Under the pieces are notes generated by a model. That model was not told the DNA's origin and searched no databases. It saw only the letters and a list, made by a program, of their open reading frames with translations. Below, one piece after another: positions 24,616-47,194 of a stretch of 64,000 nucleotides of DNA. How positions within the stretch are numbered: the first letter of the stretch is position 1; every line of letters starts with the position of its first letter. Both the position numbers and the translations under genes were made by a program. Source of the stretch: Escherichia coli 042 (GTDB lineage: Bacteria > Pseudomonadota > Gammaproteobacteria > Enterobacterales > Enterobacteriaceae); NCBI RefSeq assembly GCF_000027125.1, contig NC_017626.1, one strand, 5' to 3'.

Positions 24616-24646
24616 ACATATCGCGATGAGTGCCATGCCTGATGCG

Positions 24647-24717
24647 ACGCTGACGCGTCTTATCATGCCTACGGGACGATGTGTAGGCCGGATAAGGCGT
24701 TCACGCCGCATCCGGCA
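24647..24717. repeat. REP/BIME pair between ybfP and kdpE
   Basis: GCCTGATGCGACGCTGACGCGTCTTATCATGCCTAC ... TAGGCCGGATAAGGCGTTCACGCCGCATCCGGCA. Confidence 0.8.
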
Positions 24718-24726
24718 ATTCAGACC

Positions 24727-25404
24727 CTAAAGCATAAACCGATACCCAATACCGGTTTCAGTAATGAAGTGGCGGGGGCGGGCGGGATCCTGTTCCAGTT
24801 TTTGTCGCAGATGTCCCATATAAATACGCAAATAATGACTGTGTTCGACCGCGTTTGGCCCCCACACCTGGTTAAGGAGCTGGCGCTGGGTGAGCACTTT
24901 CCCGGCGTTATTCAGCAGCACCGCCAGCAGGCGGAACTCAATCGGGGTGAGATGCACCTCTTCCTCACCTCGATGGATCACACGAGCTGCTAAATCGACG
25001 GTAACATCGGAAAATTTCACCAGCGGATCGGGCGCGGTGGTGGCGGAGTGGCGGCGTAAAGCGACGCGCAGGCGGGCCTGCAATTCGCCAATACCAAATG
25101 GCTTACTCAGGTAATCATCCGCTCCGGCATCCAGCGCGGCGATTTTGTCGCTCTCTTCGCTACGTGCGGAAAGCACAATCACCGGCACCGCGCTCCACTG
25201 GCGCAGGTCGCGGATAAACTCAATCCCATCACCATCGGGCAGGCCGAGATCGAGAATAATCAAATCTGGCTTACGGGTTGCCGCTTCCAGCAAGCCGCGT
25301 TGCAGCGTTTCGGCCTCATAGACGCGCATACCGTCGCCCTCCAGCGCCGTGCGCAGAAAGCGACGAATAGCCTGTTCATCTTCAACAATCAGAACGTTTG
25401 TCAC
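24727..25404 (-). CDS. kdpE: Response regulator KdpE, 225 aa
   Basis: [17 protein letters not shown] receiver domain plus winged-helix output. Confidence 0.95.
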   Translation of the reverse strand: MTNVLIVEDEQAIRRFLRTALEGDGMRVYEAETLQRGLLEAATRKPDLIILDLGLPDGDGIEFIRDLRQWSAVPVIVLSARSEESDKIAALDAGADDYLSKPFGIGELQARLRVALRRHSATTAPDPLVKFSDVTVDLAARVIHRGEEEVHLTPIEFRLLAVLLNNAGKVLTQRQLLNQVWGPNAVEHSHYLRIYMGHLRQKLEQDPARPRHFITETGIGYRFML

Positions 25405-30729: not shown

Positions 30730-32403
30730 TCAGGAGAGATATTCCGCCACCGGACCAAGCGCCAGGGCAGGGATAAAGGTCAGTGCGCCAACCAGCAACA
30801 CGGTGCCGATTAACAGGCCAACAAACAGCGGGCCGTGCGTTGGCAGCGTGCCGGAGCTGGCGGGTTGGCTCTTTTTACTCACCAGCGAACCGGCAATTGC
30901 CATCACCGGGATAATCACCCCGAAGCGACCGACAAACATGCAGAACGCCAGTAAACAGTTCCAGAACGGAGAGTTGGCGCTTAATCCGGCAAAGGCGCTG
31001 CCGTTGTTGTTAGCGGCGGATGACACGGCGTACAGCACTTCGCTAAAACCATGCGGGCCAGGGTTGAGCATGGCGCTACGTCCGGCGTCGGTCATCATCG
31101 CCAACGCCGCGCCCATCAGCACCAGCGTCGGGGTAACCAGAATTGCCAGTGCAGTCAGTTTCATCTCGCGTACGTCGATTTTTTTACCCAGATATTCCGG
31201 TGTACGACCAATCATCAGCCCGGCAATAAACACCGCCAGCAGAACAAACAGCATCATGCCGTAAAGACCAGAACCGACACCGCCGAATACCACTTCACCA
31301 ATTTGCATCAGCCACATCGGCACCATGCCACCGAGAGCGGTAAACGAATCATGCATCGCAATCACCGCGCCACAGGAAGCCGCCGTAGTCACGACCGCAA
31401 ACAGGCTACTGACCAGCACGCCGAAACGGCTCTCTTTACCTTCCATATTGATGCTGCTGTCCGCGCCCAGTGCCAGCAGATGAGGATTACCCTGAACTTC
31501 TGCCCACATCACCACGCCTACGCAGATGACAAAAATCATCGACATCGCCCACAGCAACATGCGCCCCTGACGGTGATCGCCCGCCACTTCGCCAAAGGCA
31601 AAGCACAGCGCTGTTGGGATCAAGAAAATCGCCAGCATTTGCACGAAGTTGGTCAGTGCGGTTGGGTTTTCAAACGGATGCGACGAGTTGGCATTAAAAA
31701 AGCCACCGCCGTTAGTTCCGAGCATTTTGATCGCTTCCTGAGAAGCTACTGGCCCCATTGGTAACAGCTGTTGCGCTCCTTCAATGGTCGTCACAGCCTG
31801 ATAAGGCAAAAAGTTTTGCAGCGCGCCTTGTTGTATAAAAAACAGTGCGATCAGCAATGCTACGGGGGTTAACACCCATAACGTAATCCGCAACAGGTCT
31901 ACCCACGCATTACCCAGCGTGTTCATGCTCTGGCGGGTAAACGCGCGAATAAGCGCAAAAATCACCGCAATCCCGCTGGCGGCAGAAAGAAAGTTTTGTA
32001 CCGTTAGGCCTGCCATCTGGCTGAAATAGCTCAACGTGGTTTCACCGCTGTATGACTGCCAGTTGGTATTTGTGACGAAACTGACCGCGGTATTCAGTGC
32101 CAGATCCCATGACAGTCCCGGCAACTGCTGCGGATTAAGCGGCAGATAGTGCTGACCGAGCAACATAAAAAACAGCACCGCCAGCCCCAGCATATTCAGG
32201 CCAAGAATGGCTGAGAGATACTGCTTCCAGTTCATCTCGCGGTCAGAGACGCCAAGCGCGCGAAAAAGTACGCGCTCAACGCCCGTCGTACCGGGAAGAG
32301 GAATGTCATTAATCAGCCGCGCCAGCCCGCTGCCTAAAGGACGCGCCAGCACCATTAACACCAGTAAAAACGTGGCAATCAGTAAGAACCCTTGCGCAGC
32401 CAT
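30730..32403 (-). CDS. kdpA: K+-transporting ATPase subunit KdpA, 557 aa
   Basis: [19 protein letters not shown] start; ORF track 605-aa call is an upstream extension running through kdpF. Confidence 0.95.
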
Positions 32404-32492
32404 CAGAACGCCTCCGCATTGATCAGGGCATAAACCAGATAACCCAGTAATAAAAACACCAGCAACACGCCGGCTATCACGCCTGCACTCAC
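32403..32492 (-). CDS. kdpF: KdpF, 29-aa hydrophobic subunit of the Kdp complex (GTG start)
   Basis: GTG-initiated [29 protein letters not shown] preceded by GGAGGTG; stop overlaps kdpA ATG by 1 nt. Confidence 0.85.
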
Positions 32493-32573
32493 AGTGCACC
32501 TCCAGTGGCCTAAAAGTGATACCGGAAGGGTAGAATTCTGGCTGCAAAGATTTCGCAAAAATCTTCGGGCGGG

Positions 32574-32596
32574 ATGTAAAAAAAGTATAAAAATGG
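32574..32596 (-). promoter_or_regulatory. KdpE binding site / kdpFABC promoter region
   Basis: Minus strand reads TTTTTATACTTTTTTTACA (TTTATA-N-TTTACA direct repeat) roughly 85-105 nt upstream of kdpF. Confidence 0.55.
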
Positions 32597-32804
32597 CAAA
32601 AGCCATGATTTAACTAATGTTTAGTATTAATTTAACTTTTGTGTAACTTAATTACAGGGTGAATGTAAATAAACCATCAATAAGCAAAAATAAGTGGTCG
32701 GATGAGTAGTAAAATTACACAAAAGGCGGTACTATTTTCATCAGATAAACAAATTCATTTTTCCGGTGCCATTCACCGGGTAGATACAAAAGGGGGAGAA
32801 AAGT

Positions 32805-33011
32805 ATGGAACTCTACAGAGAATATCCTGCATGGCTTATCTTTTTACGCCGTACTTATGCGGTTGCAGCGGGCGTTCTGGCGCTGCCTTTCATGCTTTTC
32901 TGGAAAGACCGCGCCCGCTTTTACAGCTACCTGCACCGCGTCTGGTCGAAAACCAGCGATAAACCGGTGTGGATGGATCAGGCCGAAAAGGCAACTGGTG
33001 ATTTTTACTGA
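32805..33011 (+). CDS. ybfA: YbfA (DUF2517 small protein), 68 aa
   Basis: [68 protein letters not shown]. Confidence 0.88.
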
Positions 33012-33034
33012 TTGCTGAGTTCTGAATACATTGA

Positions 33035-33068
33035 AAACCGCCAGCGGAAACGCTGGCGGTTTTTTTCT
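33035..33068 (+). terminator. ybfA rho-independent terminator
   Basis: ACCGCCAGCG-gaaa-CGCTGGCGGT followed by TTTTTTT. Confidence 0.8.
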
Positions 33069-33112
33069 TTTCGCCGTCTACACTTACTCCTGTAAACCGT
33101 TCAGGAGCAGTA

Positions 33113-33622
33113 ATGAATCAGCAACGATTTGATGACAGCACCCTAATCCGTATCTTCGCCCTTCATGAGTTACATCGACTGAAAGAACATGGCTTAACGC
33201 GCGGGGCGCTTCTCGATTATCACAGCCGCTATAAACTCGTCTTTCTGGCTCATTCCCAGCCGGAATACCGCAAACTTGGCCCGTTCGTGGCTGATATTCA
33301 CCAGTGGCAAAATCTGGATGACTATTACAACCAGTACCGCCAACGCGTAATTGTTTTGCTTTCTCACCTCGCCAACCGACGTGACCACACCAATGTTTTG
33401 ATGCACGTTCAGGGATATTTTCGCCCACATATTGATTCCACAGAACGCCAGCAGCTGGCGGCGCTTATCGACAGTTATCGCCGTGGCGAGCAACCGCTTC
33501 TTGCGCCGCTGATGCGTATCAAACACTATATGGCGCTTTATCCTGACGCCTGGCTTTCAGGGCAGCGTTATTTCGAACTTTGGCCGCGTGTGATTAACTT
33601 GCGCCATGCAGGAGTTTTATGA
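33113..33622 (+). CDS. ybgA: YbgA (DUF1722 protein), 169 aa
   Basis: MNQQRFDDSTLIRIFALHELHRLKEHGLTRGALLDYHSRYK...; 4-nt overlap with phr. Confidence 0.9.
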   Translation: MNQQRFDDSTLIRIFALHELHRLKEHGLTRGALLDYHSRYKLVFLAHSQPEYRKLGPFVADIHQWQNLDDYYNQYRQRVIVLLSHLANRRDHTNVLMHVQGYFRPHIDSTERQQLAALIDSYRRGEQPLLAPLMRIKHYMALYPDAWLSGQRYFELWPRVINLRHAGVL

Positions 33623-35037
33623 CTACCCATCTGGTCTGGTTTCGCCAGGATTTACGTCTGCACGATAATCTCGCACTGGCTGCCGCCTGCCGCAATTCGT
33701 CTGCACGCGTGCTGGCGCTGTATATCGCTACACCACGCCAGTGGGCGACGCATAACATGTCGCCGCGTCAGGCTAAACTTATCAATGCTCAACTGAATGG
33801 GCTACGAATAGCGCTGGCGGAAAAAGGTATTCCTTTATTGTTCCGTGAAGTGGATGACTTTGCCGCCAGCGTCGAAATAATTAAACAGGTGTGCGCGGAA
33901 AACAGCGTTACTCATCTTTTTTATAACTATCAGTATGAGGTGAATGAGCGGGCGCGGGATGTGCAGGTTGAGAGAACGCTGCGTAACGTGTTGTGCGAAG
34001 GGTTTGATGACAGCGTGATCCTGCCGCCTGGCGCGGTGATGACCGGCAATCACGAGATGTACAAAGTCTTTACGCCTTTTAAGAATGCCTGGCTGAAACG
34101 GCTGCGGGAAGGGATGCCGGAGTGCGTCGCTGCACCAAAAGTTCGTAGTAGCGGATCGATAGAGCCCGCGCCATCCATTACGCTGAATTATCCTCGTCAG
34201 TCTTTCGATACTGCGCATTTTCCGGTGGAAGAAAAAGCGGCGATTGCGCAATTACGCCAGTTTTGCCAGAACGGTGCCGGAGAGTATGAGCAACAACGAG
34301 ATTTTCCGGCAGTTGAAGGTACCAGCCGTTTGTCCGCCAGCCTGGCAACGGGCGGGTTATCGCCTCGCCAGTGTCTGCATCGCCTGTTGGCGGAACAGCC
34401 GCAGGCGCTGGACGGTGGGGCCGGTAGTGTCTGGCTTAATGAGCTGATCTGGCGCGAGTTCTACCGCCATTTGATGACGTATTACCCCTCGTTGTGTAAA
34501 CATCGTCCGTTTATTGTCTGGACGGATCGTGTGCAGTGGCAGCGCAATCCCGCCCATTTTAAAGCCTGGCAAGAAGGTAAAACGGGATACCCGATTGTTG
34601 ATGCTGCCATGCGTCAGCTTAACAGCACTGGCTGGATGCATAACCGGCTACGGATGATTACAGCCAGTTTTTTGGTGAAAGATTTATTGATCGACTGGCG
34701 CGAAGGCGAGCGATATTTCATGTCGCAGCTGATTGATGGTGATTTGGCAGCCAATAACGGTGGCTGGCAGTGGGCCGCTTCAACCGGAACCGATGCAGCG
34801 CCGTATTTTCGTATTTTTAACCCGACAACCCAGGGCGAGAAATTTGACCGCGAAGGCGAGTTTATCCGCCGGTGGCTACCGGAACTGCGCGATGTACCAG
34901 GGAAAGCGGTGCATGAGCCGTGGAAGTGGGCGCAGAAAGCAGGTGTGACGCTGGATTATCCGCAACCGATAGTTGATCACAAAGAGGCAAGGCTGCGAAC
35001 GCTGGCAGCGTACGAAGAAGCGAGGAAAGGAGCCTGA
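33619..35037 (+). CDS. phr: Deoxyribodipyrimidine photolyase, 472 aa
   Basis: MTTHLVWFRQDLRLHDNLAL and conserved C-terminal FAD-binding region. Confidence 0.95.
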   Translation: MTTHLVWFRQDLRLHDNLALAAACRNSSARVLALYIATPRQWATHNMSPRQAKLINAQLNGLRIALAEKGIPLLFREVDDFAASVEIIKQVCAENSVTHLFYNYQYEVNERARDVQVERTLRNVLCEGFDDSVILPPGAVMTGNHEMYKVFTPFKNAWLKRLREGMPECVAAPKVRSSGSIEPAPSITLNYPRQSFDTAHFPVEEKAAIAQLRQFCQNGAGEYEQQRDFPAVEGTSRLSASLATGGLSPRQCLHRLLAEQPQALDGGAGSVWLNELIWREFYRHLMTYYPSLCKHRPFIVWTDRVQWQRNPAHFKAWQEGKTGYPIVDAAMRQLNSTGWMHNRLRMITASFLVKDLLIDWREGERYFMSQLIDGDLAANNGGWQWAASTGTDAAPYFRIFNPTTQGEKFDREGEFIRRWLPELRDVPGKAVHEPWKWAQKAGVTLDYPQPIVDHKEARLRTLAAYEEARKGA

Positions 35038-35078
35038 TAAAACGCAGCGAGCGTTTTATCAGGTATGGTGCTGGCCTG

Positions 35079-36743
<1,665 letters not shown>

Positions 36744-36830
36744 TTAATATGTCAAAAGATTGGCTATCGACGAACAGGCGAGGTAACGCTATGTTAACGG
36801 TGTAGCTATCAGAATACGGAAGGCGCGAAG

Positions 36831-37574
36831 ATGAAAAACACCGAACTGGAACAACTGATTAACGAAAAACTGAACAGCGCGGCGATTAGTGATTACGCGC
36901 CGAATGGTTTGCAGGTGGAAGGCAAAGAGACGGTGCAAAAAATTGTTACCGGTGTCACTGCCAGCCAGGCTTTGCTCGATGAGGCAGTGCGTCTGGGCGC
37001 GGATGCGGTCATTGTGCATCATGGCTACTTCTGGAAAGGCGAATCTCCGGTCATTCGCGGCATGAAGCGTAACCGTTTAAAAACGTTGCTGGCAAATGAT
37101 ATCAACCTGTATGGCTGGCATTTGCCGCTTGACGCACATCCTGAGCTGGGCAATAACGCACAGCTGGCGGCGTTACTGGGGATCACGGTCATGGGCGAAA
37201 TTGAGCCGTTGGTGCCGTGGGGCGAACTGACCATGCCTGTGCCGGGACTGGAACTAGCCTCCTGGATTGAAGCGCGTCTGGGACGTAAGCCGTTATGGTG
37301 TGGCGATACCGGACCTGAGGTGGTCCAGCGCGTTGCCTGGTGCACGGGCGGCGGGCAAAGTTTTATCGATAGCGCCGCGCGTTTTGGCGTGGATGCTTTT
37401 ATTACTGGCGAAGTTTCTGAACAGACCATTCATTCAGCCCGCGAGCAGGGATTGCATTTTTATGCTGCGGGTCACCATGCCACTGAACGTGGTGGTATTC
37501 GCGCGTTGAGCGAGTGGCTGAATGAAAATACCGATCTTGATGTGACCTTTATTGATATTCCTAATCCTGCATAA
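36831..37574 (+). CDS. ybgI: Nif3-family metal-binding protein YbgI, 247 aa
   Basis: Full-length ORF; conserved His-rich metal-binding residues. Confidence 0.92.
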   Translation: MKNTELEQLINEKLNSAAISDYAPNGLQVEGKETVQKIVTGVTASQALLDEAVRLGADAVIVHHGYFWKGESPVIRGMKRNRLKTLLANDINLYGWHLPLDAHPELGNNAQLAALLGITVMGEIEPLVPWGELTMPVPGLELASWIEARLGRKPLWCGDTGPEVVQRVAWCTGGGQSFIDSAARFGVDAFITGEVSEQTIHSAREQGLHFYAAGHHATERGGIRALSEWLNENTDLDVTFIDIPNPA

Positions 37575-37596
37575 CGAATAATCAGAGGGATCGAAA

Positions 37597-38253
37597 GTGC
37601 AACGAGCGCGTTGTTATCTGATAGGTGAAACGGCGGTAGTGCTGGAACTGGAACCGCCGGTGACGCTGGCTAGCCAGAAACGGATCTGGCGACTGGCACA
37701 GCGTCTGGTGGATATGCCGAATGTGGTTGAAGCCATTCCCGGCATGAACAATATCACGGTGATTTTGCGTAATCCTGAGTCGCTGGCGCTGGATGCCATA
37801 GAGCGTTTGCAACGCTGGTGGGAGGAGAGTGAGGCGCTGGAGCCGGAGTCTCGCTTTATTGAAATTCCGGTGGTTTACGGTGGTGCAGGCGGACCGGATT
37901 TAGCGGTGGTCGCGGCGCATTGTGGGTTGAGTGAGAAACAGGTTGTTGAATTGCACTCCTCCGTGGAATACGTGGTCTGGTTTTTAGGTTTTCAACCGGG
38001 CTTCCCGTATCTCGGGAGTTTGCCGGAACAACTACACACGCCACGGCGCGCTGAACCGCGCTTGCTCGTTCCGGCAGGTTCTGTCGGGATCGGCGGGCCG
38101 CAGACTGGTGTTTATCCGCTGGCAACGCCGGGTGGCTGGCAGTTGATTGGTCATACCTCACTCAGCCTGTTTGATCCGGCGCGTGACGAACCCATCTTAT
38201 TACGTCCGGGAGACAGCGTGCGCTTTGTACCGCAGAAGGAGGGAGTATGCTGA
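37597..38253 (+). CDS. pxpB: 5-oxoprolinase subunit B (allophanate hydrolase subunit 1-like), 218 aa, GTG start
   Basis: Full-length ORF; 7-nt overlap with pxpC. Confidence 0.9.
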
Positions 38254-39179
38254 AGATTATTCGTGCGGGCATGTATACCACTGTGCAGGATGGCGGTCGT
38301 CACGGTTTTCGCCAGTCGGGTATCAGCCACTGCGGCGCACTGGATATGCCTGCGTTACGCATTGCTAACCTGCTGGTGGGTAATGACGCCAATGCCCCCG
38401 CGCTGGAGATAACGCTCGGTCAGTTAACGGTAGAGTTCGAAACTGATGGTTGGTTTGCCCTGACGGGGGCAGGTTGCGAAGCGCGGCTGGATGATAATGC
38501 CGTCTGGACTGGCTGGCGCTTGCCGATGAAAGCAGGCCAGCGTTTAACGCTTAAACGCCCGCAGCACGGGATGCGCAGTTATCTGGCGGTCGCGGGTGGT
38601 ATTGATGTTCCGCCGGTAATGGGGTCATGCAGTACCGATCTCAAAGTGGGGATTGGCGGGCTGGAAGGCCGTTTACTGAAGGATGGTGACCGACTCCCGA
38701 TGGGTAAATCGAAGCGTGATTTTATGGAAGCGCAGGGCGTTAAACAGCTGCTGTGGGGCAACCGCATTCGCGCCTTGCCGGGGCCGGAATATCATGAGTT
38801 CGATCGCGCCTCGCAGGATGCATTCTGGCGTTCGCCCTGGCAGCTTAGTCCGCAAAGTAACCGCATGGGCTATCGCTTACAGGGGCAAATTTTAAAACGC
38901 ACCACCGATCGCGAACTGTTATCTCACGGTTTGTTGCCGGGTGTGGTGCAAGTGCCGCATAACGGCCAGCCGATTGTATTGATGAACGACGCACAGACCA
39001 CCGGTGGTTATCCGCGTATTGCCTGTATCATTGAGGCTGATATGTACCATCTGGCGCAAATTCCGCTCGGTCAGCCGATTCATTTTGTCCAGTGTTCACT
39101 GGAAGAGGCACTGAAAGCGCGGCAAGATCAACAACGTTATTTCGAACAATTAGCGTGGCGGCTGCACAATGAAAATTGA
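38247..39179 (+). CDS. pxpC: 5-oxoprolinase subunit C (allophanate hydrolase subunit 2-like), 310 aa
   Basis: Full-length ORF; 11-nt overlap with pxpA. Confidence 0.9.
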
Positions 39180-39903
39180 CCTGAACGCCGATCTGGGCGA
39201 AGGCTGCGCCAGCGACGCAGAGCTATTAACGCTGGTTTCCTCTGCCAATATTGCTTGTGGATTTCATGCAGGCGATGCGCAAACCATGCAGGTTTGCGTG
39301 CGTGAAGCAATAAAAAATGGTGTCGCGATTGGCGCTCACCCGAGTTTTCCCGACCGGGAAAATTTTGGTCGCAGTGCCATGCAGCTGCCGCCAGAAACCG
39401 TTTACGCCCAGACGCTGTATCAAATTGGCGCGCTGGCAGCGATTACCCGTGCACAAGGGGGCGTAATGCGTCATGTCAAACCGCACGGCATGTTATACAA
39501 CCAGGCGGCGAAAGAGGCACAACTGGCAGACGCCATCGCCAGAGCGGTATACGCTTGCGATCCGTCATTGATTCTCGTCGGGCTGGCGGGAAGCGAGCTG
39601 ATTCGTGCAGGCAAGCGATATGGTCTGATAACGCGCGAGGAAGTGTTTGCCGATCGCGGTTATCAGGCTGACGGCTCGCTGGTGCCGCGAAGCCAGCCAG
39701 GCGCGTTGATTGAAAACGAAGAACAGGCGCTGGCGCAAACGTTGGAGATGGTGCAACACGGCAGAGTCAAAAGTATCAACGGCGAATGGGCAACGGTCAC
39801 GGCGCAAACGGTCTGCCTGCATGGCGATGGAGAGCACGCACTGGCATTCGCCCGCCGACTACGCTCTACATTTGCCGAAAAGGGGATTGTTGTCGCAGCA
39901 TAA
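39169..39903 (+). CDS. pxpA: 5-oxoprolinase subunit A (LamB/YcsF family), 244 aa
   Basis: [20 protein letters not shown]... Confidence 0.9.
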
Positions 39904-39938
39904 CCCCGCTTAATAAAGAATGAAAAAAGGATATCACC

Positions 39939-40730
39939 ATGCCTGAAGGCCCGGAGATCCGCCGTGCAGCGGATAACCTGGAGGCGGCGATCAAAGGCAA
40001 ACCACTAACTGATGTCTGGTTTGCCTTCCCGCAGTTAGAACCTTATCAATCACAACTTATCGGTCAACACGTTACCCATGTGGAAACGCGAGGTAAGGCG
40101 TTGTTAACTCATTTTTCCAACGGTTTAACGCTCTACAGCCATAATCAGCTTTACGGCGTCTGGCGCGTGGTTGATACCGGCGAAGAGCCGCAGACCACGC
40201 GAGTATTGCGGGTAAAACTGCAAACGGCTGACAAAACCATTCTGCTTTATAGCGCCTCGGATATTGAGATGTTGACCCCGGAACAACTGACCACGCATCC
40301 GTTTTTACAACGCGTTGGCCCCGATGTGCTGGATCCGAATCTGACGCCGGAGGTGGTAAAGGAACGATTATTGTCGCCGCGCTTTCGTAACTGTCAGTTT
40401 GCTGGATTACTGCTCGATCAGGCGTTTCTGGCAGGACTTGGCAATTATTTGCGGGTGGAGATCCTCTGGCAGGTGGGGTTAACCGGCAATCATAAAGCGA
40501 AAGATCTCAGTGCGGCGCAACTGGATGCACTCGCACACGCGTTACTGGATATTCCTCGACTTTCTTACGCTACGCGGGGGCAGGTGGATGAGAATAAACA
40601 TCATGGGGCGTTGTTTCGCTTTAAGGTTTTTCATCGTGATGGCGAACCGTGTGAACGCTGTGGCAGCATCATTGAGAAAACCACGTTGTCCTCGCGCCCG
40701 TTTTACTGGTGTCCAGGCTGCCAACACTAG
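39939..40730 (+). CDS. nei: Endonuclease VIII (Fpg/Nei DNA glycosylase), 263 aa
   Basis: N-terminal MPEGPEI catalytic Pro2/Glu3; C-terminal zinc finger CxxC-N16-CxxC. Confidence 0.95.
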
Positions 40731-41773
40731 GCCGACCGCTTCGGCGCATAGGTTGAAATAAACCGCGCAATGGCTGGCCCCGTCAGCAAAATACTGAACA
40801 GGCGCAGGGTTTGCATCGCCATAATAAGCGCCATATCGGCATTGCTCCCTGCGGCGATGACCGCCACGGTATCAAGCCCGCCGGGACTGGTGGCGAGGTA
40901 GGCGGTCATAAAATCAATATGCATAAACCGGGTCAGCCCCCACGCCATACCTGCACAAATAGCCAGCAGAGCAAAAATCGACAGCAAGATTTGTGGCAGT
41001 GGGCGCAATGCTCGCAGTAAGATTTGCTTATCGAAACCAAGACCAATCCGCCAGCCAATTGCCATATACGCCATCGCCAGCAGCCATTCCGGGAGTTCAA
41101 TCGTGATGAGCTGACCAGACTGGAGCACTGCGCCCGCCAGCATCGGGATGAGCATTGTGCCGGAAGGAAGACGTAGCAAGCATCCCGCCGTACCGGCAAC
41201 GACCGCGAGCAAAATCGTAAGCAGGAGATTAATGCTCACTGGCGGGAACCAGACGATCTGCTGGTTAACCGCTTCAGCGTTATCGCCCAGCATCATGCGG
41301 GTGACCAGAACAGCGGCCCCCGCGACGAACAGCACTCGCAGATATTGCATAAATGCCACCAGGCGAATATCTGCGCCGTAATCTTGCGCCATAGCGACCA
41401 TTGCCGCCGCGCCGCCAGGAGAAGAACCCCAGGCACCGGTATTTCCAGGCAGTGAGCTATAGCGCACCAATAACCAACCCACGATGGCGCTGGAAAGCAG
41501 CGTCACCAGTAAAATGGCTAACACTATCGGCCAGTTGGCGGCCAACGTGGTGAGAATCGAACCAGTGAGGTTTTGCGCAATCATACAGCCAAGAATGGCC
41601 TGCGCGGCGAGAAAAGCGGAGCGGGGAAGTTGCAGAGTAATTCCGCGCATACTAAAGATGATCCCGGCGATCATCGGCCCAAGTAATAGTGCCGCCGGGA
41701 GATGTACCGCGAGGAAACCAATAGAAAGGAGAAGTGATAGCACACATAACATTCCCCACTGCAAAATTGGCAT
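40727..41773 (-). CDS. abrB: AbrB (AidB regulator) family membrane protein, 348 aa
   Basis: [20 protein letters not shown] start at ATG 41771-41773; stop overlaps the nei stop by 4 nt (convergent). Confidence 0.88.
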
Positions 41774-41924
41774 CCTTCGCTCCCTCATTATTTTTTCTTT
41801 GGTGTATCGATACAGCATAAAGAAAGCCGGGCCAGGAAAAAATAACAGCAATCAAGGAAAAGGGGAAAATCAGCAATTTTCTGAAAGAGATGCCCTTTCC
41901 GGCTGCAAAGGGCACCATGGCAAA

Positions 41925-42986
41925 TCAGTTATAGTTAATCTTAAAAAGCACCACTGTATCGAAGGGGCCAGCTTCGATGGGGGTACCTGGAATGGACGAA
42001 AGTTCAGCCGTATAGGTTTTTTCGTAGATCAACATATCGCTGGTGAAATCAGCATATTCGCTGTATTTGTTGAAAGTATAGGGTGAAGAATTTTCATCCA
42101 GCAAACGGAGCTTCAGTCCATTACCAATCAGCAGTGCTTTATCCTCTTCAATCAATGTTTCTTCGGTATAAAACGAAGAGCTGACCTTAAATCCGTCGGT
42201 GCACTGGTCATTTTGTGATTTTGTCGTCTTAATACTGAATGTTTTAGACATTGTGTGGCGGCGAATATCCAGCAGGTTAAATTTACCAAAATCAATCACC
42301 TGTGTTTCTGGTGAAATAGAAAAATTGACGCTGCAATCCAGTACACGAATGTTTTCCAGACCAGTAATATGGTATTTCAGGTTTTGGGCGGTAGGGTCTT
42401 CGTTAACGCTACCGGCACCATCAAATTGCACGACGATGTAGTCGCTAAGCGTACTTTGATAATCATGCGGCGGCATTTCGCGAATCTTAACGTATAACCG
42501 CATACGAGCGAGAAAGGTTCGCGACATGTGAATATTAGCGGGGTCACCCGAACATATTTTGTTCTGCCATCCCATCGCGATGATCTGCTCAGGGGTATAA
42601 ATGTCAATGTTCTTACTGTCGATACACTGGTTAGTGTCGATGCGGCTTTTTCCCTGGTTGGCGTCATAATCAACGCCATTGTAAGTTACGCCGAGTTGAT
42701 AATAGCGATCCTGCACCCCCGGGTAGGGGTTTACCCAGGCGTAGACATGCTCACTTTCAAAGTTGCCGTTGGTATTGTTGTCACAATAGACGGGAATTTT
42801 AATATCGTCAGATTCCCAAATCTTATCGCCGGGTTTGGCATTGCCTGGTACAGCAAAAGGTTGAATCACTTCTGATTTTTCTACCGAACCACCGGATGAA
42901 CCAAAGTAGCAGTTCAGGGCAAGCGCAGACTTCAACGGCAGAAATACCAGACAGATGACGAGCAACACTCCCTTGCCAGCACTCAT
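41925..42986 (-). CDS. ybgO: Fimbrial adhesin-like protein YbgO (cryptic chaperone-usher operon), about 353 aa
   Basis: Signal peptide then fimbrial-like domain; start at ATG 42984-42986 with GGAGG; ATGA overlap with ybgP. Confidence 0.85.
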
Positions 42987-43714
42987 TTCTTCGCCTCCAC
43001 TGCTTGTAAACGGCATTGTCCGCTGCAGTTGAGCGTCGTCATGCGTAACGCGCCGTAATCATCCATATAACCGAGATAAAACTGCCTGCCGCTATAACTT
43101 CCGGTGTTTGTAATTACTGTACTAAAAGGCGCAACCATCACGGTTTTGAAGCCCGGGAGAATACCTTGCTCATTTCGTCCCAGGTAGGCGATTGTCAGGT
43201 AATAGCCGGTCGGGTTTTTTAAGTTAAGTTGATTGCCCTGCTGGCTGACTTGTAACTGTAGCTCGACTTTTTCTCCTGCTTTCTTGCGTAACGCGGACGG
43301 TCTCCAGAACACTTTGATACGACTCTGGATGGCGACCTGCAGAACGGCATGGCCGCTGTTTTTTTCCGGGGCGGGAGGAATTTCACGCATATTGTAGAAA
43401 AATAGCGTTTCGCGATCGCCCGGTAATTTTGTGGTCGAGACTTGCTTTACTATCCGTACCTGCGTTGTTGCTTTCGGTTCCAGACGTTGTATCGGTGGCA
43501 GGGCAACCAGAAGATCATCGCTTTTCTCCCCTTTTTCATTTTCGAGCCAGGAATAAGCGAGGTAGGGGAGTTTATCGCTACGATTATCCACTCGCAGGCT
43601 GGTGGCTTTATCATTAGCGTTAAACACAATGCGAGTGCGATCGGGTTGTAGTGCGGCGTGGCTGCACAGACTGGCAACCAACAACAAAAGGGGTAGTCCT
43701 TTCATAAATGTCAT
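42983..43714 (-). CDS. ybgP: Periplasmic fimbrial chaperone YbgP (PapD-like)
   Basis: [31 protein letters not shown]...; PapD-like fold signature; start inferred at ATG 43712-43714. Confidence 0.88.
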
Positions 43715-43728
43715 TTTCATTTCCTTAA

Positions 43729-46188
43729 TTAATGACAAGGTAAAATCAGGCGATTTGCGGTGTCTTCCATATGTTCAGGAAGATGGATCGAGCAACGCTG
43801 GCTATCACCCCAGATCACGGTAAATTGTTGATTTTCAGCGACTCCACTTAACCAGGCGTGTCCTTCCTCGCCAACCATTCCCACGCTAATGCCGCTATCC
43901 TCCTGGCGGATATCCGCACCGAGGGGAGGGAACTGACCGCTGGCGTTGCGAATGATGACGTTAACGTCTTTACCGGAACGGGAAGCCAGCGATTTGTAAC
44001 CTATCGCGCCTTCAATCCACGTTTCTTTGATAACGTTATCTGCCACTGTTACGCCGTCGGGTAAATCATTCATGTTCACCGCCACGGTGGAAGGCTGATA
44101 ACTGGAAATCAACGGCACCACCGCAATGCCAAAATGGTTGGTGTAGTCGAGATTGCCCTGAACCGGAATATCTGCCACGCCATCGGTACTGACCATCAGA
44201 CGTGGTTCATTGGTGGAGCTGCGACGATGGAACGCCGCACCATATTGAGTTGCCGTGAAAGAACCGCTCCAGCTGCTGCTGACGGAACTGTAATCATTGG
44301 CGGCATAGGTACCAGAAATATCCCACTCACCCGCTGAACTCAGGTGCTGATAGTTACCGCTCACCTGGGCTCCATTATCCGGACGGTCGGATTGCAGTCC
44401 GGTAGACATGCCCCAGCTATTACGTTCATCTAACGTATCATTCCACGACATGCGGTGCGTGGTGCTGTGACCACTGTTTTGCATGTCATAACCGACCCGC
44501 CCCCCGTTACCGAAGGGGAGCGAAATCGACAGGTAAATCTGATTGTCGCGATCTTTATCTTCGTAATGGGTTGTATTGAATGACGTCGAGATCGAGATAT
44601 CTCTCCAGTTACCAATATCAACATTAAAACCCGCCGTGATGTTGGCGGTCGTGGAGGCGTCTGCATTCCACCAGGTTTGATGCAGCAGGTTGGCGTACAG
44701 ATTGAGGTTCAGTGGAGTAATCGGTTGCCCCACAGATAAGCTGATCGTCTGTTTTTCGTCCTGCGCATCGTTGTCGTTGTATTTGTGATCCAGATAGTTG
44801 GCGTAGCTGTGAAAATGACGATCTGAGAAGCGATAAGCGGCGAGCGAAATCGTGCTGTTAGTGGCATCCACTTGTTTGCTGTAATTAAAGCGGTAACTTA
44901 AGCCCCGCTCGTCCTGCTGAGTATCAAACTGACTACTGGCCCAGGTGACATCAAACGACAATGCACCAAGCCAGAGCATATTTTGCCCGATACCCATTGC
45001 GGCAGAATGGTAGTTGTCACCCGAAATCAGCAGGCCGCCGTACAGCGAGGTATTTGACAGCATCCCCCAGGAAACTTCATTGCTAAAAAAGGTTTCATTT
45101 TCAGTTTGATGTGACATGGAGGGCCGTGGCTGACCCGCGGTCAATTTATAGCGAACCTGTCCCTGGCGAGTCAGGAAGGGTGTCGATGCTGCCGAAACCT
45201 GGAAATTGTTCACCCGACCATCTTCTTCCGTCACTTTGACATCCAGCGTGCCCTGAACAGACTGATTGAGGTCATCAATAATAAACGGGCCTGGCGGGAC
45301 TTTTTTCTGGTAAATGACGCGGCCTGATTGACTGATCGTCACCGTGGCATTGGTCTGTGCAATACCGCTAATTTGTGGGGCGTAGCCACGCAGCTCCCAC
45401 GGTAACATTCGATCGTCACTCGCCAGTGCCGCGCCGGTATAAGAAAAACTATCGAAAATATTGGAACTGAAATCGGTTTCGCCGAGGGTTAACTTAGAGC
45501 CTAATTGCGGTAATGGACGAAAAAGATAGGTGCGTGATATTTCGCCTGACTGGTCATGGTTATCTTCGCTATCGGTCTTATTAAGCTGGTAATCACTGCG
45601 TAAGCGCCATGCCCCGGCGTTAATTCCGGCGGTACCGTAGGCATTCAGATTAGTGCTGCTGCTGCCGTCCTGTGGGCGGTAGCTGCTGGCAAACAAGTTG
45701 TAATCCATCAGGACACCGGCAACACCTTCTTTCCATGTAGAGGGGGGAGCCCAGTTTTCTGAGTGCCACGCCAGCCAGGCTTGCGGAATACTAATATTCA
45801 GTTGCTGATTGGCTTGATCGAAATTGAAGAGCATTTCAGGTCGGGAACTGAAATCAATACACCGATCTATCTGTGGCAAGGACTGACGGATATCTGGTTT
45901 TAAACCAAATTTATCGACCAGTGAATCATTGATGCATGGAATGGTTTTGTCACCCTTTTTTTGCCAGTTGATTTTTTGCCCATTACTGATTTGGTTGTTA
46001 TTCACCGCAACGCTAACAAAATATTCACCGGGAGCAATGACTCCTTTTTCCTTTAATAATGAAATATCAATGCGGTCGCGCATTGATTTATCGAGAACAT
46101 TCAGATTGAATTCGACCGCCAATGCGGAAGGCATCGCCATGACCAGGCAGGATATAAAAGAGAGTCGATAAATATTCACGGTGTCCAT
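43729..46188 (-). CDS. ybgQ: Fimbrial usher outer-membrane protein YbgQ (start approximate)
   Basis: More than 800 aa with usher-family sequence; start at ATG 46186-46188 inferred from signal-peptide position. Confidence 0.85.
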   Translation of the reverse strand: MDTVNIYRLSFISCLVMAMPSALAVEFNLNVLDKSMRDRIDISLLKEKGVIAPGEYFVSVAVNNNQISNGQKINWQKKGDKTIPCINDSLVDKFGLKPDIRQSLPQIDRCIDFSSRPEMLFNFDQANQQLNISIPQAWLAWHSENWAPPSTWKEGVAGVLMDYNLFASSYRPQDGSSSTNLNAYGTAGINAGAWRLRSDYQLNKTDSEDNHDQSGEISRTYLFRPLPQLGSKLTLGETDFSSNIFDSFSYTGAALASDDRMLPWELRGYAPQISGIAQTNATVTISQSGRVIYQKKVPPGPFIIDDLNQSVQGTLDVKVTEEDGRVNNFQVSAASTPFLTRQGQVRYKLTAGQPRPSMSHQTENETFFSNEVSWGMLSNTSLYGGLLISGDNYHSAAMGIGQNMLWLGALSFDVTWASSQFDTQQDERGLSYRFNYSKQVDATNSTISLAAYRFSDRHFHSYANYLDHKYNDNDAQDEKQTISLSVGQPITPLNLNLYANLLHQTWWNADASTTANITAGFNVDIGNWRDISISTSFNTTHYEDKDRDNQIYLSISLPFGNGGRVGYDMQNSGHSTTHRMSWNDTLDERNSWGMSTGLQSDRPDNGAQVSGNYQHLSSAGEWDISGTYAANDYSSVSSSWSGSFTATQYGAAFHRRSSTNEPRLMVSTDGVADIPVQGNLDYTNHFGIAVVPLISSYQPSTVAVNMNDLPDGVTVADNVIKETWIEGAIGYKSLASRSGKDVNVIIRNASGQFPPLGADIRQEDSGISVGMVGEEGHAWLSGVAENQQFTVIWGDSQRCSIHLPEHMEDTANRLILPCH

Positions 46189-46238
46189 ACCTGATAAATA
46201 TTTGAAGAAAGGCGGCGATGACGCCGCCAAAGTGATAC

Positions 46239-46805
46239 TTATTTATAATCCAGCACGTAGGTCGCATTCGCCGTAACTGCGCCTGGCGTTACAGGTGTAG
46301 CCTGATCAATTTGTTCCATCCACGCAAAGAAATTTAACGTTTGTTCGCTGGAGGTCGGAGCCAGGTCGATATCTGGAGTAGCGGTGCCTAAAACGATATT
46401 GCTTTGATCTTTATTCATTAAACGCACGCCGACGCCGGTGGCTTCACCCGTGCTGGTGTTGTTGAGAATCGGATCTGCGCCGGTGGTTTTCGCTGAGCTT
46501 TCAAAGGTGACTGCAACTTTAGAAATCTTGCCGCCGGAACCGTTGTTGGAGTTTTCCAGATCGCAGTTGACTAAGCGCAGGTCGACAGCAACGGCATCGC
46601 TGTGATGCGACTGATTAATATGGCTGGTGGTCACCTGACCGAGTTCAACCTCTTTATCAATATCATCCTGATGTATTTCACACGGTGCTTCAATAACTTC
46701 ACCTTTAAAGTGAATTTCACCGGATCCTTCATCAGCCGCATAAACAGGTGCTGTGAATAGCAGAGATATGGCCAGTGCGGCCAATGTTTTTTGTCCTTTA
46801 AACAT
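46239..46805 (-). CDS. ybgD: Fimbrial major subunit YbgD, 188 aa
   Basis: MFKGQKTLAALAISLLFTAPVYA signal peptide; AAGGA Shine-Dalgarno; first gene of the ybgDQPO operon. Confidence 0.88.
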   Translation of the reverse strand: MFKGQKTLAALAISLLFTAPVYAADEGSGEIHFKGEVIEAPCEIHQDDIDKEVELGQVTTSHINQSHHSDAVAVDLRLVNCDLENSNNGSGGKISKVAVTFESSAKTTGADPILNNTSTGEATGVGVRLMNKDQSNIVLGTATPDIDLAPTSSEQTLNFFAWMEQIDQATPVTPGAVTANATYVLDYK

Positions 46806-47133
46806 AGCTGAGTCCTTTAAATAATGAGATAGAGTGTTGCGAGGCAAGAATATATTAACTGACAGTTGAATGTATTTGGTTTTATTTAACAATATTAAAA
46901 ATCTTGTTATATAAAGAATGGAATAATTGAGTGTATAAATTTATTGTTTAATGAGATGAAAGATGGGGTGGGATGGATATGCATAATTTTCATTGGGTTA
47001 ACAATGCTACCGGCAGGAAAGTATAAAAATAAACTTATCATTCTGCTCAGTATGTGACTTGTCACATTTTTTCACCTTATTAATGGGTATTTGCATCTGG
47101 TTTAATTTTTACAATTTATTATGTTCAGCCATA

Positions 47134-47167
47134 TAAAAAAGAACCCGCTCTATTAAAGGCGGGTCCG
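47134..47167 (-). terminator. gltA rho-independent terminator
   Basis: Minus strand GGACCCGC-ctttaataga-GCGGGTTC followed by TTTTTT. Confidence 0.6.
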
Positions 47168-47194
47168 GAAAGTAAACGGCTTAGCAATCAACCA

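Follow-up and report, generated by a model that had tools for sequence, protein, structure and literature searches.

The region described here lies within a 64-kb stretch of the Escherichia coli 042 genome, referred to below as the window, and consists of two genes, ybfA and ybgA, separated by an intergenic spacer of 101 bp (33012..33112) whose limits were taken from the list of open reading frames and from direct reading of the sequence. On the left of the site, ybfA (32805..33011, plus strand) encodes a 68-residue DUF2517 protein that matches PF10725 at 117.1 bits, against a Pfam gathering cut-off of 25; on the right, ybgA (33113..33622, plus strand) encodes a 169-residue DUF1722 protein that matches PF08349 at 119.3 bits, against a cut-off of 22.5. 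Both genes are annotated under these names in matching genomes. The start of the deoxyribodipyrimidine photolyase gene phr (also phrB; 33619..35037, plus strand), assigned from Pfam families PF00875 and PF03441 and from synteny with K-12, overlaps the end of ybgA. The minus-strand kdpFABC genes are upstream of ybfA, and dtpD is found downstream.

The stop codon of ybfA is separated by a post-stop spacer of 17 bp (33016..33032, plus strand), identified in alignments as the K-12-like allele, from the predicted intrinsic (rho-independent) terminator of the gene (33033..33071, plus strand), whose stem occupies 33033..33064 and whose T-run extends to 33071. A terminator scan gives it a 14-bp G+C-rich stem with 8 G-C pairs, a 4-nt GAAA loop and a T7 run, and the 101-nt intergenic spacer as a whole folds at −38.1 kcal/mol (z = −4.9), a value that none of 200 shuffled sequences equalled. 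With a predicted stem-loop and a U-run located 3′ of a gene, the segment 33033..33071 has the features by which an intrinsic terminator is recognised. It is kept in all E. coli alleles, and an altered version is found in Salmonella. Rfam, searched at gathering and at permissive thresholds, gave no family at the junction and just sub-threshold matches to the hairpin.

The breakpoints of local BLAST alignments with K-12, at 33065 and 33075, define an insertion point of 9 bp, TCTTTTCGC (33066..33074, with no strand assigned), and the nearest conserved block on its right-hand side is the motif GTCTACACT (33076..33084, plus strand). The conserved hexamer TACACT could serve as a −10-like element for ybgA-phr; a promoter scan of the spacer predicted no sigma-70-like site. 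Ahead of ybgA, a leader hairpin predicted with ViennaRNA, CUCCUG-N9-CAGGAG (33087..33107, plus strand), pairs the Shine-Dalgarno sequence, and the same CUCCUG/CAGGAG hairpin appears in ViennaRNA folds of the window, MS14385, THO-006 and K-12, in empty and occupied alleles alike. A pairing over longer range, of the post-stop spacer with the ybgA Shine-Dalgarno sequence, was also considered and was dropped, not being conserved in the B2-like allele described below. The original prediction placed the start of ybgA about 45 bp beyond the ybfA terminator, a figure that agrees well with the measured distances, which are 41 nt when counted from the last T of the run and 48 nt when counted from the last base of the stem.

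In the K-12 strain MG1655 (NC_000913.3) there is a gap of 9,660 bp between the same two genes. Here ybfA lies at 729134..729340, rhsC at 729583..733776 and ybgA at 739001..739510, and the gene order between ybfA and ybgA is rhsC, ybfB, ybfO (pseudogene), ybfC, ybfQ, ybfL (pseudogene) and ybfD. The prediction had started from the premise that K-12 carries rhsC and associated ORFs at the ybfA-ybgA junction; the MG1655 annotation, checked for a location of rhsC elsewhere in K-12, agrees with that premise. Local BLAST aligns window positions 32000..33065 with K-12 up to 729394, at 97.0% identity, and positions 33075..34000 with K-12 from 738963 onwards, at 96.2% identity. Between these breakpoints the window has the 9 bp noted above, whereas K-12 has 9,568 bp (NC_000913.3 729395..738962). 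The alignment across ybfA-ybgA that had been proposed as a check thus gives colinear flanks that break at 33065 and 33075, with the island missing. The K-12 rhsC element (position 5) has the same flanking genes, terminator and ybgA leader as the window, with flanks that are 96-97% identical, but none of the genes from rhsC to ybfD listed above is present in the window.

Searches for island sequence agree with this comparison. No match to K-12 RhsC was found by tblastn in the whole 64-kb window at E ≤ 0.01, nor did the same 64 kb give any match by tblastn with YbfB, YbfC, YbfD or a VgrG fragment from E. whittamii, or by blastn with the entire 9,568-bp K-12 island; the H-repeat sequence is also absent. 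From ybfA to phr no ORF exceeds ybgA, and a Rhs YD-repeat core (∼1,400 residues) with a C-terminal toxin tip is absent. The island leader, which begins GTATCAGGAAGA, does not follow the T-run of the ybfA terminator in the window, where the ybgA leader stands instead. The claim that this is a strain without the rhsC locus, with an unoccupied junction, is borne out by the lack of any DNA or protein match to the K-12 island in the window. Since flanks that are colinear with occupied K-12 are contiguous in the window, we conclude on the strength of the alignments that this is an unoccupied integration site, and the basic statement that the site at 33012..33112 is empty leaves hardly any room for doubt.

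The empty junction was compared between alleles in an alignment of the window with N3, MS14385, strain B1 (calf), THO-006 and B20123. All of the aligned empty alleles have one architecture, in which the hairpin is followed by an interrupted T-run, CG(G/C) and then CGTCTACACTT, and the empty junctions of three divergent haplotypes align colinearly. A homologous T-rich segment of 8-9 bp is kept in every empty allele examined and occurs at neither edge of the K-12 island. The window shares its architecture, with a spacer of 100-101 bp, with MS14385 and with a B2-like empty group (including THO-006 and B20123) that comprises ∼1,155 genomes. The B2-like group differs from the window, to which it is ∼87% identical over 211 bp, in having an unrelated 17-bp post-stop spacer and in the interruption of the T-run (TTTTCTTTTTTCGG versus TTTTTTTCTTTTCGC). 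The post-stop spacer TGAGTT(C/T)TGAATACATT is common to the window, N3, MS14385, K-12, O157 and E. whittamii. Across E. coli, there are at least three alleles of the 17-22 bp after the stop codon, none of them related to the others (K-12-like, B2-like and CFSAN061763-like), with conserved sequence on both sides.

The state of the site was surveyed in 5,426 complete E. coli genomes, 5,424 of which match the junction region. A contiguous ybfA-ybgA junction, corresponding to an empty site, is present in 1,306-1,310 of the 5,426 (∼24%), and a few of these hold an IS1 (H8, for example). A further 171 genomes (∼3%) carry a 1.66-kb immunity-gene islet without a Rhs core, and ∼73% carry larger inserts, of which the three inspected (K-12, O157:H7 and CFSAN061763) are all Rhs islands. 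Where the junction is split, the left match ends at 33065/33066 and the right match starts at 33075, as in K-12, in every row of a sample of ∼50 junctions viewed individually from roughly 4,100 that are occupied. The exact 83-bp junction of the window is found in only four complete genomes, N3, PapM-32-1, NY1601 and MEW.

The occupants of the site differ in size and content. The insert in O157:H7 F8798 (∼7.9 kb) comprises an RHS core, ybfC, an NTF2-fold immunity gene, a DUF6258 gene and an ISAs1 remnant, and that in CFSAN061763 (∼6.6 kb) an RHS core, a small ORF, an orphan RHS tip and an ISAs1 remnant. The 1.66-kb islet, as seen in ECA64 (NZ_CM144250.1, L019:3599..5250), consists of an ERIC-like repeat and three small genes, for SMI1/KNR4, hypothetical and CDI-type immunity proteins respectively. 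The insertion lies within the T-run of the ybfA terminator, with the same flanks as the site in the window, but the islet has no Rhs core, its ends are unlike those of the K-12 island, and the window contains none of it. At least two inserts that are unrelated to each other, namely the vgrG/Rhs island and the islet with its ERIC repeat and orphan immunity genes, have used the T-run, and so has IS1. For the K-12 island, neither a search nor inspection of the junctions gave convincing target-site duplications or terminal inverted repeats. The right-hand inverted repeat of the H-repeat ends ∼35 bp inside the island, so that the boundary is not set by the IS.

A different type of Rhs occupies the same site in GCA_047199055.1 (CP178302.1, L020:6307..10899), a Shigella-like genome whose kdp operon is fragmented and where ybfA is followed by IS1 and a gene for a 935-residue PAAR/DUF6531/RHS-repeat protein; this agrees with the clade III Rhs reported at position 5 in Sh. 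flexneri (PMC2935791). P0010, tried as an Escherichia outgroup, was rejected as Shigella-like, with a pseudogenised kdp operon and with IS1 and PAAR-RHS after ybfA.

The outgroups that were viewed directly are E. whittamii, Salmonella and Enterobacter. In Salmonella enterica, kdpFAB and ybfA are followed by a hairpin, a T7 run, ∼10 nt, GTCTACACT and later TTCAGGAG before the start codon, with no Rhs; the hairpin differs in sequence from that of the window and, there being no ybgA, the spacer runs straight into phr. This ybfA-phr spacer measures 110 bp (L012:4208..4317), with both motifs, which in E. coli belong to the ybgA leader, preceding phr; GTCTACACT stands as far beyond the ybfA terminator as it does in the window. 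Enterobacter also has no Rhs between ybfA and phr, and keeps GGCTACACTT before phr. In E. whittamii Sa2BVA5 (L011:1..1745, minus strand) the site is occupied, with a K-12-type left junction followed by a vgrG-like gene. The island leader of E. whittamii enters this gene and not rhs directly, whereas K-12 has no vgrG at the site; the vgrG frame appears to be interrupted, with 23 stops in a one-frame translation. Alignment shows that the left leader of the island and its junction are homologous in K-12, O157, CFSAN061763 and E. whittamii, and the sharing of both by four genomes points to one old insertion event.

When species-representative genomes were scanned for the terminator, three loci only were recovered: one in E. 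coli E69, where the locus is cut at the junction, one in E. whittamii and one in a Rhizobiaceae MAG contig (CAJYRE010000207.1, L010:1592..1630). The last of these, an identical hairpin AACCGCCAGCGGAAACGCTGGCGGTTTTTTT associated with an unrelated gene and with no other DNA or translated similarity, was set aside, and looks like convergence of a palindromic terminator sequence.

Other parts of the window also differ from K-12. Identity to K-12 is 97.1-97.6% on the left side, 95.0-95.7% over 33075..52495 (ybgA to sdhB) and 98.5% over sucA-sucD; the stretch dtpD..ybgQ is only 90.5% identical to O157, in a region of strong mosaicism to which the ybgOPQD fimbrial operon belongs. At 24620..24729 the 5.1-kb K-12 block ybfG-ybfI-potE-speF-speFL (NC_000913 715910..721058) is absent and a REP-like repeat of ∼110 bp links ybfP to kdpE, leaving the strain without the inducible ornithine decarboxylase/antiporter operon. 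This ybfP-kdpE junction is contiguous in 253 of the 5,426 complete genomes, several of them at 100% identity, and E. whittamii likewise has no speF-potE between ybfP and kdpE.

After sucD, at 59215..64000, four genes stand in place of the K-12 genes mngR-mngA-mngB. One of them, at 59773..60678, encodes a LysR-type regulator; two are on the minus strand, a cobalamin adenosyltransferase-like gene (60712..61314) and one for a class I fumarate hydratase (61324..62976); and the fourth encodes a dicarboxylate-type transporter (within 59215..64000). The same arrangement is found, colinear, in 2,113 complete E. coli genomes. A segment of ∼426 bp (5803..6229) that separates the metT tRNA cluster from asnB has no K-12 counterpart and holds a small ORF, starting at ∼5882, with a signal-peptide-like N-terminus. 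Rfam gave three matches to naRNA4, a REP/BIME-derived nucleoid-associated RNA, in the sdhB-sucA and sucB-sucC spacers (52420..52585 and 56913..56983), and one to ES036 (8305..8347).

We conclude that the window very probably holds the intact, unoccupied ybfA-ybgA region of a lineage without the rhsC island, with the empty allele most likely the ancestral one. The coordinates, breakpoints, population frequencies and outgroup layout are matters of direct observation, and it is from these that we infer the polarity of the change. Both the Salmonella layout, which is without Rhs, and the 8-9 bp that neither edge of the K-12 island has argue that the empty allele is ancestral, and we regard it as probable that this allele is the original arrangement and not a deletion scar. 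The outgroup layout is empty in Salmonella and Enterobacter, whereas E. whittamii is occupied and E. albertii is reported to be so; both alleles are therefore old.

The empty state could also have arisen by secondary loss, either through deletion of a former position-5 Rhs island or through replacement of the region by an empty allele from another strain. Rhs is found here in E. albertii (PMC2935791), in E. whittamii and in the ∼73% of E. coli genomes with larger inserts, and the flanks of the window are nearer to occupied strains (97% identity to K-12 and CFSAN061763) than to the B2-like empty alleles (94-95%). The region is, moreover, a recombination mosaic, N3 being nearly identical to the window over 31.7-33.7 kb and only 98.4% identical over 13 kb, and recombination with an empty donor would give exactly the junction that is observed. 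A plain deletion from a K-12-type island, however, cannot recreate the 8-9 bp that are missing at both island junctions and shared by the empty alleles; the match to the Salmonella layout and the absence of any island remnant in the window likewise speak against loss, which we consider unlikely.

Rhs cores are multi-copy repeats and can break short-read assemblies, so that a repeated element might have been collapsed or skipped to give a false ybfA-ybgA join. The same contiguous junction is nevertheless present in ∼1,306-1,310 complete genomes, four complete genomes have the identical 83-bp junction, and the 9 bp are unique to empty alleles and could not be made by collapse of K-12-like sequence; the chance that the junction is an assembly artefact is negligible. 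The window might, alternatively, derive from a sister species whose site was never occupied, the difference then being one between species and not a strain polymorphism. Over the 25 kb of window positions 39001..64000 every complete E. coli genome is at most 98.5% identical, and identity to K-12 is just 95% from ybgA to sdhB. Over most of the window, however, identity is 97-98.5% to K-12 as against 93% to E. whittamii, the four genomes that share the exact junction are labelled E. coli, and synteny with K-12 is complete except for known variable islets, making a separate species very improbable. The drop of N3 to 98.4%, together with the lack of any complete genome above 98.5% over 39001..64000, indicates instead a poorly sampled, mosaic lineage of E. 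coli.

The island-bearing strains share a single insertion junction directly after the terminator T-run. In place of the 8-9 bp they have 6.6-9.6 kb of DNA with a Rhs core gene and its toxin tip, together with immunity genes, remnants of H-repeat/ISAs1 and orphan tips, and in E. whittamii vgrG comes before this content. If the empty allele is ancestral, as we prefer to read it, the lineage would either have kept it throughout or have regained it through homologous recombination across the flanks; that it stems from deletion of a K-12-type island is unlikely.

The presence or absence of Rhs elements from strain to strain has been described since the 1990s, and Hill and colleagues reportedly correlated Rhs elements with the population structure of the ECOR collection. 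The empty rhsC site is a real and ordinary strain difference of this kind, and one that is already known. The site corresponds to Rhs position 5 (kdpA..phr) of Jackson et al. 2009, who found it to be variably present among strains, described a complete rhs at this position in E. albertii, inferred that the ancestral E. coli was occupied, and noted one group of pathogenic strains without the clade I expansion (PMC2935791). Rhs variation in laboratory strains, including the region b0699-b0706, is tabulated in the paper on the E. coli W genome (PMC3032704).

For the strain itself, the consequence would be the lack of a RhsC-type toxin/immunity pair at this locus, with ybgA-phr placed directly downstream of the ybfA terminator. 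Significance beyond strain typing is small, but the clean junction offers a marker, by PCR or in silico, of the state of Rhs position 5, and the count of three states of the site across 5,426 complete genomes is a mildly useful addition. The sequence evidence against an origin of the empty allele by deletion from a K-12-type island slightly qualifies the published scenario of ancestral presence and later loss. It is also possible, although we think it doubtful, that the T-run of the ybfA terminator is a recurrent and perhaps targeted integration hotspot, at which the alternative alleles have coexisted since before the split of E. coli, E. whittamii and E. albertii; were this true, the site would represent a long-lived presence/absence polymorphism, and not the ancestral presence followed by loss that has been published.
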